Shown: positions 12,615-15,884 of the stretch, in pieces
How the letters are laid out: each line of letters starts with the position of its first letter
Position numbering within the stretch: the first letter of the stretch is position 1
Assembly: GCF_050920415.1 (NCBI RefSeq)
Contig: NZ_CP169309.1
Origin: Escherichia coli
Lineage (GTDB): Bacteria; Pseudomonadota; Gammaproteobacteria; Enterobacterales; Enterobacteriaceae
Length of the DNA: 64,000 nucleotides
Reading direction: 5' to 3' (one strand)
Program-made: the position numbers and the translations under genes
The notes under the pieces: model-generated
The model's database searches: none
Told to the model about the DNA's origin: nothing
What the model saw: the letters and a program-made list of their open reading frames with translations, nothing else

Positions 12615-13296
12615 TTATGGATCTGTTGATTGTTTTAACTTACGTGGCGCTGGCATGGGCGGTCTTTAAAATCTTCCGTATTCCGGTGAATCAGTGGACG
12701 CTGGCGACGGCGGCGCTGGGAGGCGTTTTTCTGGTAAGCGGTTTGATTTTGTTGATGAACTACAACCACCCTTACACTTTTACCGCACAGAAAGCGGTGA
12801 TTGCTATTCCCATCACGCCACAGGTGACGGGGATCGTGACTGAAGTCACTGACAAGAATAATCAGCTTATTCAGAAGGGCGAGGTGCTTTTTAAGCTCGA
12901 CCCGGTACGTTATCAGGCGCGAGTCGACAGACTTCAGGCTGACCTGATGACGGCGACGCATAATATAAAGACGCTGCGCGCGCAGCTCACTGAAGCGCAA
13001 GCCAATACCACCCAGGTTTCAGCGGAGCGTGACCGCTTGTTTAAAAATTATCAACGTTACCTGAAAGGCAGCCAGGCGGCGGTAAATCCGTTCTCAGAAC
13101 GTGATATCGACGATGCGCGGCAGAATTTTCTCGCGCAGGATGCGCTGGTGAAAGGTTCGGTGGCGGAACAGGCGCAAATCCAGAGCCAGCTCGACTGTCA
13201 GCGCCAATGATATAAGACAGTAATTCACCATTTGGATTGTCCGCTCCACCCAACATGTTGTTTCCTTAAGGTTCCTACACCACAAAGGGAACACTC

Positions 13297-14343
13297 ATGC
13301 TGAGCAGAGAGGACTTTTACATGATAAAGCAAATGCGCCAGCAAGGTGCGTATATTGTTGATATTGCCACTCAGGTTGGTTGCTCTGAGCGGACTGTCAG
13401 ACGGTACCTGAAATACCCGGAACCTCCGGCCAGAAAAACACGCCACAAAATGGCCAAACTCAAGCCGTTCATGGACTATATCGACATGCGTCTGGCTGAG
13501 AATGTCTGGAACGGCGAGGTCATCCTGGCGGAAATCAAAGCGATGGGTTATACCGGTGGCCGTTCCATGTTGCGTTACTACATCCAGCCCAAACGTAAGA
13601 TGCGGCCATCGAAGAAAACGGTTCGCTTCGAAACTCAGCCCGGTTACCAGCTACAGCATGACTGGGGAGAAGTTGAGGCTGAGGTTGCCGGGCAACGATG
13701 CAGGGTTAACTTCGCGGTTAATACGCTGGGGTTCTCACGTCGCTTCCATGTCTTCGCGGCACCAAAGCAGGATGCTGAACATACCTATGAGTCACTGGTC
13801 CGCGCCTTTCGCTACTTCGGCGGCAGCGTGAAAACCGTGCTGGTCGATAACCAGAAAGCCGCAGTGCTGAAAAATAACAACGGGAAGGTGGTGTTCAACT
13901 CCGGGTTCCTGCTGCTGGCCGATCACTATGGCTTCCTGCCACGGGCCTGCCGTCCACGAAGGGCCAGAACCAAAGGTAAGGTGGAACGGATGGTGAAATA
14001 CCTCAAGGAAAACTTCTTCGTCCGGTACCGCCGGTTCGACAGCTTCGCCCATGTTAATCAGCTACTGGAGCAGTGGATGGCTGACGTTGCCGACAGGCGG
14101 GAACTTCGCCAGTTCAGGCAGACACCGGAACAGCGCTTCACGCAGGAACAGGTGCATCTGCAGGCGCTGCCAGGTACGGACTTCGATACCAGCTACTTCG
14201 ATATCCGTCATGTCTCCTGGGATGGCTATATCGAGGTTGGCGGGAACCGTTACAGCGTGCCGGAAAGCCTGTGTGGCCAGCCGGTATCAATACGGATCTC
14301 GCTGGATGATGAACTGCGATTTACAGTAATGAGCAACAGGTAG
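13297..14343 (+). CDS. istA: IS21-family transposase IstA, apparently frameshifted near its 3' end
   Basis: HTH N-terminus and DDE-like core. The ORF stops at 14343, but another frame continues ...[13 protein letters not shown] to a TGA at 14466-14468 that overlaps the istB ATG, the usual istA/istB junction. Confidence 0.7.
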   Translation: MLSREDFYMIKQMRQQGAYIVDIATQVGCSERTVRRYLKYPEPPARKTRHKMAKLKPFMDYIDMRLAENVWNGEVILAEIKAMGYTGGRSMLRYYIQPKRKMRPSKKTVRFETQPGYQLQHDWGEVEAEVAGQRCRVNFAVNTLGFSRRFHVFAAPKQDAEHTYESLVRAFRYFGGSVKTVLVDNQKAAVLKNNNGKVVFNSGFLLLADHYGFLPRACRPRRARTKGKVERMVKYLKENFFVRYRRFDSFAHVNQLLEQWMADVADRRELRQFRQTPEQRFTQEQVHLQALPGTDFDTSYFDIRHVSWDGYIEVGGNRYSVPESLCGQPVSIRISLDDELRFTVMSNR

Positions 14344-14467
14344 CATCGCACCGTCTCTGTTCGGCTGTATACGGCTGGCAGACCGTGCCGGAGCATCACG
14401 CCCCACTCTGGCAGCAGGTCAGTCAGGTGGAACACAGGCCGTTGAGTGCCTATGAGGAGCTGTTGTG

Positions 14468-15262
14468 ATGCATGAACTGGAGACACTGCTGGGTCGTCTT
14501 AAAATGGAACATCTGGGCTACCACGTTGAAAGCCTGCTGGAGCAGGCGGCCAAAAAAGAACTGAACTACCGCGAGTTCCTGTGCATGGCGTTGCAGCAGG
14601 AATGGAACGGGAGGCATCAGCGCAGTATGGAGTCCCGGCTGAAACAGGCCCGCTTCCCGTGGGTCAAAACGCTGGAGCAGTTCGACTTCGGCTTCCAGCC
14701 AGGTATCGATCGTAAGGTCGTCCGTGAGCTGGCCGGGCTGGCGTTCGTGGAGCGTAGCGAGAACGTGATCCTGCTGGGTCCGCCTGGTGTGGGTAAAACG
14801 CACCTGGCAGTCGCTCTCGGGGTAAAAGCGGCGGACGCTGGTCATCGGGTGCTGTTCATGCCACTGGATAAGCTGATCGCCACACTCATGAAGGCAAAAC
14901 AGGAAAACCGGCTGGAAAAACAGCTACAGCAGCTTGGTTATGCCCGGGTACTGATACTGGATGAGATAGGCTATCTGCCGATGACCCGCGAGGAAGCCAG
15001 TCTGTTCTTCCGGTTGCTGAACCGTCGATATGAAAAAGCGAGCATCGTGCTGACGTCAAATAAAGGGTTCGCCGACTGGGGAGAGATGTTCGGCGATAAC
15101 GTGCTGGCAACGGCAATCCTGGATCGACTGCTACACCACTCAACCACACTGAACATCAAAGGAGAAAGCTACCGGTTAAAGGAAAAACGCAAAGCGGGAG
15201 TGCTGGCAAAAAACGCCACGCCAATCAGTGATGATGAAATGGCGGCAAGCGGACAACATTAA
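14468..15262 (+). CDS. istB: IS21-family ATP-binding helper IstB
   Basis: Walker [12 protein letters not shown] and Walker [10 protein letters not shown] motifs. Confidence 0.85.
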
Positions 15263-15884
15263 TGACCAATAGCGGACATTAAAAATGGCGAAAAACGGCC
15301 AATAATCTTGGCGTTGACACGACAGTATGGTTAACGGTGAGCAGTCGCAGATTGTCAGCTTAAGGGCGCAGCTTACCGAAGCGAAATATAACCTTGAGCA
15401 GACCGTCATTCGCGCGCCGAGCAATGGCTACGTTACTCAGGTACTGATCCGCCCAGGTACATACGCAGCTGCCTTGCCGCTACGTCCGGTGATGGTTTTC
15501 ATCCCCGAGCAAAAACGGCAAATTGTCGCCCAATTTCGGCAGAACTCGCTGTTACGTCTGAAACCCGGCGATGATGCGGAAGTAGTGTTTAACGCGCTAC
15601 CTGGGCAGGTGTTCCACGGCAAACTGACTAGTATTTTACCTGTCGTGCCAGGTGGTTCGTATCAGGCGCAGGGGGTACTGCAATCATTAACCGTCGTACC
15701 CGGCACGGACGGTGTGCTGGGAACCATCGAACTGGACCCTAACGCTGATATCGATGCTTTACCCGACGGCATCTACGCCCAGGTGGCAGTTTACTCCGAC
15801 CATTTCAGCCATGTTTCGGTGATGCGGAAGGTGCTGCTAAGAATGACCAGTTGGATGCATTATCTTTATTTGGATCATTGAGGG

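Follow-up and report, generated by a model that had tools for sequence, protein, structure and literature searches.

The window, that is, the whole 64,000-nucleotide stretch of Escherichia coli DNA analysed here, carries an IS21-family element of 2124 bp on the plus strand (13196-15319) within yibH, a gene encoding an HlyD-type membrane-fusion-like inner-membrane protein. The gene order around it, with mtlA on the minus strand followed by yibI and yibH, is the same as in K-12. The features of this locus and of the neighbouring accessory region are as follows:

12252-12614, plus strand: yibI (DUF3302, 120 aa), intact, upstream of yibH; Pfam PF11742, E=2.7e-41; annotated as yibI in a near-identical genome
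12617-13195, plus strand: yibH 5' part, codons 1-193; PGAP partial pseudogene in NZ_CP169399.1
13192-13195, no strand: left target-site duplication CGAC
13196-15319, plus strand: IS21-family insertion sequence, RefSeq label 'ISEc62 family', from 98.4-99.9% identity to labelled copies
13196-13207, plus strand: left terminal inverted repeat IRL, TGTCAGCGCCAA
13224-13245, plus strand: left subterminal repeat, containing TTGTCCGCT; pairs with 15271-15292 and 15248-15256
13297-14468, plus strand: istA transposase gene, frameshifted; Pfam rve, HTH and Mu-transpos_C_2 domains
14468-15262, plus strand: istB, AAA+ helper ATPase, 264 aa, intact; PF01695, NF038214
15237-15302, plus strand: right subterminal repeats; direct repeats 15237-15256 and 15283-15302, arm 15271-15292
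15308-15319, plus strand: right terminal inverted repeat IRR, TTGGCGTTGACA
15320-15323, no strand: right target-site duplication CGAC
15324-15881, plus strand: yibH 3' part, codons 194-378 and stop; Pfam CusB_dom_1 and HlyD_D23; collinear with K-12 YibH
17112-17864: N-acetylmuramidase
21789-23990 and 26012-28357: two VgrG genes (PF05954, Gp5 domains)

Genes, ends and relatives of the element

An earlier reading of this DNA, made from the sequence only, had assigned 13196-15319 to the IS21 family, and profile searches bear out this assignment. The intact form of IstA, taken from the sister genome of E. coli MFDS1022581 (NZ_CP169399.1), scores 280 bits against the NCBIfam model NF033546 (IS21 family transposase, cut-off 160), and the istA product contains the Pfam domains rve (DDE), HTH_23 and Mu-transpos_C_2. 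For IstB the scores are 297 bits with NF038214 (IS21-like element helper ATPase IstB, cut-off 200) and 296 bits with Pfam PF01695, and the protein retains a Walker A motif, GPPGVGKT, and a Walker B motif, LILDE. The element thereby displays the two-gene organization of the IS21 family, with istA, frameshifted in the window copy, preceding istB on one strand; the original istA stop codon, TGA at 14466-14468, overlaps the istB ATG in the sequence TGATG (14466-14470).

The termini are 12-bp inverted repeats with the TG...CA ends of the IS21 family, the reverse complement of IRR, TGTCAACGCCAA, being identical to IRL at 11 of 12 positions. Internal to these lie a 22-nt inverted pair (13224-13245 and 15271-15292, 82% complementary) and a 9-nt match between TTGTCCGCT at 13237 and 15248-15256 (100% complementary). 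Each end hence holds repeated subterminal sites, corresponding to the L1/L2-R1/R2 repeat layout at the ends of IS21-family elements (PMC10122671), and we regard these as candidate IstA sites. In this family the right end supplies a -35 box and the left end a -10 box, and the two make up a strong promoter only once the ends are abutted (PMC10122671). In the window element, the last 6 bases of the right end, TTGACA, are a perfect -35 hexamer facing outward, and bases 13-21 of the element (13208-13216), TGATATAAG, could serve as an extended -10 box; as read from the sequence, abutted ends with a 2-bp junction would give a 17-bp spacer between the predicted boxes. TTGACA and TGATATAAG would thus fit the layout of an IS21 junction promoter, as a candidate promoter only. 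A promoter scan returned no hybrid promoter formed by the terminal TTGACA and the yibH flank, with 3 hits in the region against 3.1 in shuffled sequence.

Megablast recovered full-length relatives of the element in 708 of 5426 complete E. coli genomes, with plasmid locations outnumbering chromosomal ones. Most of these are 98.4% identical, 2125 bp long, and named 'IS21-like element ISEc62 family' in RefSeq; it is from the labels of such copies, 98.4-99.9% identical to the window element, that we provisionally take the name ISEc62. A literature search for ISEc62 returned incidental mentions only, one of them as an insertion in plasmid tir genes. The nearest copy outside the sister strain resides on plasmid pDEC15A-1 (99.4% identical, differing at 12 positions), and the copy in MFDS1022581, a strain in whose chromosome 4 places are reported to match the element, is 99.9% identical. 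Three substitutions, at 14321, 14368 and 15246, are carried by the window and sister copies alone. Within the 64,000-nt window, a search for further copies of the IS ends returned only two chance matches with 1 mismatch, at 4846 and 58973.

Insertion site and state of yibH

The target gene had been named as yibH in the sequence-only reading, and both sequence and position, as given by yibI and mtlA, point to the same orthology: the gene lies in the conserved mtlA-yibI-yibH synteny, and its restored product aligns to K-12 YibH (b3597) without gaps, 377 of 378 residues being identical. The terminal repeats had further been reported to be flanked by CGAC on both sides, and we recover these direct repeats at 13192-13195 and 15320-15323. 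The repeat is perfect, and the exact match is not extendable past 4 bp; a match of this length has a probability of 1/256 by chance alone. Target duplications in the IS21 family are short, 4-8 bp, and the 4-bp CGAC conforms to this. Comparison with related strains, proposed earlier as a check, showed that the uninterrupted yibH of K-12 MG1655 and of strain 2013C-4282 has the empty site CAGCTCGACAGTATGG, with a single CGAC at the junction. Because these empty sites hold one CGAC, the window allele is shown to be a simple insertion with a 4-bp duplication; moreover, similarity to intact yibH stops precisely at both ends of the IS.

The other copies of the element tell the same story. Nine were extracted, and a perfect 4-bp duplication was found at eight of them (GCTG, AGCA, CCAC, GTAA, TATG, CCGG, CTGA and that of the sister copy), the ninth abutting an IS1; a 4-bp duplication is therefore the usual footprint of this element. 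No target-site consensus was apparent among the 8 differing 4-bp duplications.

In-silico removal of 13196-15323 or, with the same outcome, of 13192-15319, in each case comprising the element and one CGAC, yields a single ORF of 378 codons starting at 12617 and collinear with K-12 YibH. The earlier expectation that excision would restore a continuous YiaV-like frame thus held, the restored protein sharing 292 of 378 residues with the paralogue YiaV. This result also bears on whether the present arrangement might derive from recombination between two IS copies, from a composite transposon or from the arrival of an island, rather than from simple insertion. The element does lie near a variable, IS-rich locus with ISAs1 remnants, as such an origin might lead one to expect. 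However, recombined copies would leave unmatched flanks, whereas the flanking 4-bp repeats are identical, excision restores a K-12-collinear yibH without a base lost or gained, and K-12 homology extends 857 bp beyond the IS. A recombinational or composite origin is, in our view, effectively refuted.

We therefore have very high confidence that an ISEc62-like IS21-family element, consisting of istA and istB, moved by simple insertion into yibH at codon 193/194, and that the copy, since frameshifted, is probably non-autonomous. No observation speaks against the insertion itself. Repair of the staggered 4-bp cut at CGAC produced the flanking duplication, and yibH was left as a 5' part of 193 codons and a 3' part of 185 codons without other damage; the event took place in the common ancestor of the window strain and MFDS1022581.

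The sequence of the two halves of yibH bears out the earlier claim that the insertion is its only lesion, there being no stops or indels in either. At the DNA level yibH is 94.5% identical to that of K-12, with 61 synonymous codon differences to 1 non-synonymous, and 20 of the 21 codon differences from the nearest uninterrupted allele (2013C-4282, 98.2%) are synonymous. Given the codon ratios of 61:1 and 20:1, yibH appears to have been under purifying selection until very recently.

As for the consequences, the insertion follows codon 193 of 378 of this HlyD/EmrA-type membrane-fusion-like protein, and the 5' ORF runs into the IS and ends at 13210 after 4 foreign residues, CQRQ. YibH is thus predicted to be null or truncated, with probable loss of function, and the cell could still produce an N-terminal fragment of 197 residues (193 native and CQRQ). 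In the 3' fragment an in-frame ATG lies at 15327; no Shine-Dalgarno sequence was seen before it, and the scan gave no hybrid promoter to drive this fragment. Since yibH comes last in the yibI-yibH pair and the genes that follow are on the opposite strand, the insertion is not expected to be polar on other genes. The paralogous pair yiaW-yiaV is intact at 36912-38407 and may compensate for the loss of yibH. A search of the literature found no functional study of yibH; in K-12 it has been deleted and its locus put to use as a neutral integration site (PMC5852967), which fits a gene that is dispensable under laboratory conditions.

Prevalence, age and the frameshift in istA

Of 5426 complete E. 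coli genomes, 5395 (99.4%) carry yibH as a contiguous gene. A query spanning both junctions found a full match in just one of the 5426, E. coli MFDS1022581 (NZ_CP169399.1, 142533-144656), an isolate from animal-source food in Korea, in which PGAP annotates an IS21-like ISEc62-family element between two partial yibH fragments. The insertion in this strain has the same site, duplication and IS sequence as that of the window, bar 1-bp indels. The two genomes are 99.99% identical over 3900-24620 and 99.98% over 15263-59675, with one extra insert of 1331 bp in the window; as both of these near-clonal genomes share the insertion, it is older than their split.

The earlier description of the insertion as recent is reasonable, with loose bounds: the duplication is perfect, there is no decay, and a single genome out of 5426 shares the allele. 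No genome in this collection combines the same yibH allele with an empty site, the best uninterrupted allele being 98.2% identical, and so 'recent' rests on the absence of decay and not on a dated sister. Should the insertion instead be old and fixed in a lineage, one would point to this same gap in the collection, which leaves the age without a tight upper bound, and to the 12 positions that separate the IS copy from its nearest non-sister relative. Against great age, both the duplication and the ends are perfect, the halves of yibH show neither frameshift nor stop, 20 of 21 codon differences from the nearest allele are synonymous, unlike in a drifting pseudogene, and the only other genome with the insertion is nearly clonal with the window. 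We consider an old insertion quite improbable and retain a recent one as the preferred reading.

Several further observations concern this strain background. Over the mtlA-yibH region (flanks 7862-16176) identity to K-12 is only ~96%, and just one other complete genome has a yibH allele of 99% identity or more; either the lineage of the strain is poorly represented among complete genomes, or the mtlA-yibH region has been recombined. The 1331-bp element absent from the near-identical MFDS1022581 occupies 59676-61006 in the malS-bax intergenic region, with ends TAGACTGGCCCC... and ...GGGGCAAATCCA; a direct repeat of 5 bp, GAATG, flanks it, and it contains two transposase ORFs that overlap. In length and ends it resembles IS2. 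This insertion is strain-specific and newer than that in yibH. In the sister genome NZ_CP169399.1, 1) yiaO (177864-178850; window ~48527-49513 by collinearity), which encodes the substrate-binding protein of the 2,3-diketo-L-gulonate TRAP transporter, has an annotated internal stop; 2) an IS110-family IS621 lies between ysaA and avtA (collinear with window ~54715-55695); and 3) the interval between aldB and yiaW contains a hicA-hicB toxin-antitoxin pair (collinear with window ~35836-36448).

The window copy of the IS lacks one G at 14317/14318 (GG to G), by which CTGCGGAT becomes CTGCGAT. This G is kept in 9 of 9 other copies, its loss being unique to the window copy, and it is on account of this loss in istA that the window element measures 2124 bp and not 2125. 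The istA ORF of the window accordingly spans 13297-14343 and encodes 348 aa, of which 341 are native and 7 aberrant; with the G restored, a 390-aa IstA is obtained. We propose that the G would have been lost after insertion, removing the last 49 residues, which probably comprise the tail together with some of the C-terminal beta-barrel. In structural work on IstA, in which residue numbering refers to IS5376 and not to the window element, this beta-barrel docks onto IstB, and truncations or contact mutations greatly cut IstB-stimulated integration (PMC11208146). Since the IstB-docking beta-barrel is predicted to be truncated in the window IstA, the window copy can, by analogy, probably not move on its own, provided that the missing base does not stem from a sequencing or assembly error.

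That proviso carries some weight. In MFDS1022581 it is istA that is intact and istB that is annotated as frameshifted, by a change from A6 to A5 at window position 14552. Over the 20.7 kb of 3900-24620, the window and NZ_CP169399.1 differ by 0 mismatches and by two 1-bp gaps, both inside the IS. It is a substantial possibility, if somewhat short of an even one, that the IS copy is fully intact and autonomous, and that the missing G in istA and the missing A in the sister istB are both sequencing or assembly errors: both changes are of 1 bp in short homopolymer runs (GG and A6), and the two indels are the sole differences between the genomes over this interval, a pattern expected of assembly error. 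A GG run, however, is not a typical error hotspot, and pseudogenised copies exist elsewhere, such as that of strain A20, whose istA has an internal stop. If both frameshifts are real, a fresh IS would have been disabled twice independently, which might indicate that an active copy at this site is selected against; or else the truncated IstA, which keeps the DNA-binding and DDE domains and lacks the IstB-docking end, might inhibit other copies. We deem this unlikely. The double disabling, if both are real, would have taken place within a span during which the 20 kb of flanking DNA gained no substitution. Our favoured reading thus remains a simple insertion whose window copy, the base call permitting, is probably non-autonomous.

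Genomic setting, implications and comparison with known elements

The IS had been placed at the edge of a T6SS island. There is indeed an island with vgrG genes nearby, but core T6SS genes (tssA-M, hcp, clpV) were found nowhere between yibH and yibF, so that a T6SS cluster is not what lies here, and the boundary with K-12-homologous DNA, at ~16177, is ~0.86 kb from the IS. This homology continues for 857 bp beyond the IS, ending at ~16176, and picks up again at 28356, ahead of yibF; the 12-kb stretch between yibH and yibF replaces the rhsA cluster of K-12. Besides the two vgrG genes and the N-acetylmuramidase, it holds EF-hand proteins, several proteins without a family match and ISAs1 remnants. 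We interpret this stretch, at the rhsA locus of K-12, as an accessory island of vgrG and cargo genes, not as a core T6SS cluster, and the IS as sitting in a conserved gene beside the island, not at its boundary.

The island shows internal duplication as well. A 543-bp segment occurs twice with 96% identity (17748-18289 and 20103-20645), and an EF-hand ORF at 17822-18391, upstream of the N-acetylmuramidase, repeats an internal part of the 829-aa protein (19290-21779) encoded downstream of vgrG. ISAs1 remnants lie near this duplication, which resembles the displaced or orphan effector modules of rhs/vgrG arrays. The two vgrG genes are ~83% identical over 2.1 kb (21917-23972 against 26254-28306), and each is followed by different genes without a family match (24146-25930 and 18874-21779), which are candidate cargo/immunity pairs.

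Taken as an event, this is an ordinary insertion by an IS from a known family, and the very same allele is already known, being present and annotated in RefSeq. Its significance is slight and mainly one of strain bookkeeping, on three counts: 1) The junctions are a lineage marker, a PCR-typable yibH::IS allele common to the window strain and one Korean food isolate. 2) The allele is a presumed natural knockout, affecting a conserved gene of unknown function, one under strong purifying selection. 3) For annotation, yibH should be recorded as a pseudogene interrupted by an IS, and istA also as a pseudogene if the base call is right.

The closest known counterparts are the ISEc62-like copies, such as those in E24377A (NC_009801.1) and on plasmid pDEC15A-1, with 98.4-99.4% full-length DNA identity to the window element. 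They have the same ends, istA-istB layout, TGATG overlap and 4-bp duplications; the window copy departs from them in being 2124 and not 2125 bp long and in its frameshifted istA. The copy in MFDS1022581 combines an intact istA with a frameshifted istB, whereas the window copy combines a frameshifted istA with an intact istB. At a greater distance, and likened by layout, stand IS21 of the Pseudomonas plasmid R68 and IS5376 of Geobacillus, which have in common with the window element a DDE-type IstA (~390-400 aa) and an AAA+ IstB, as well as TG...CA ends, repeated subterminal sites and short duplications. Their -35 box, at the right tip, and their -10 box, within the left end, have predicted equivalents in the window element. 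The duplication differs in length, being 4 bp for the window element as against 5 bp for IS5376 in vitro (PMC10122671).
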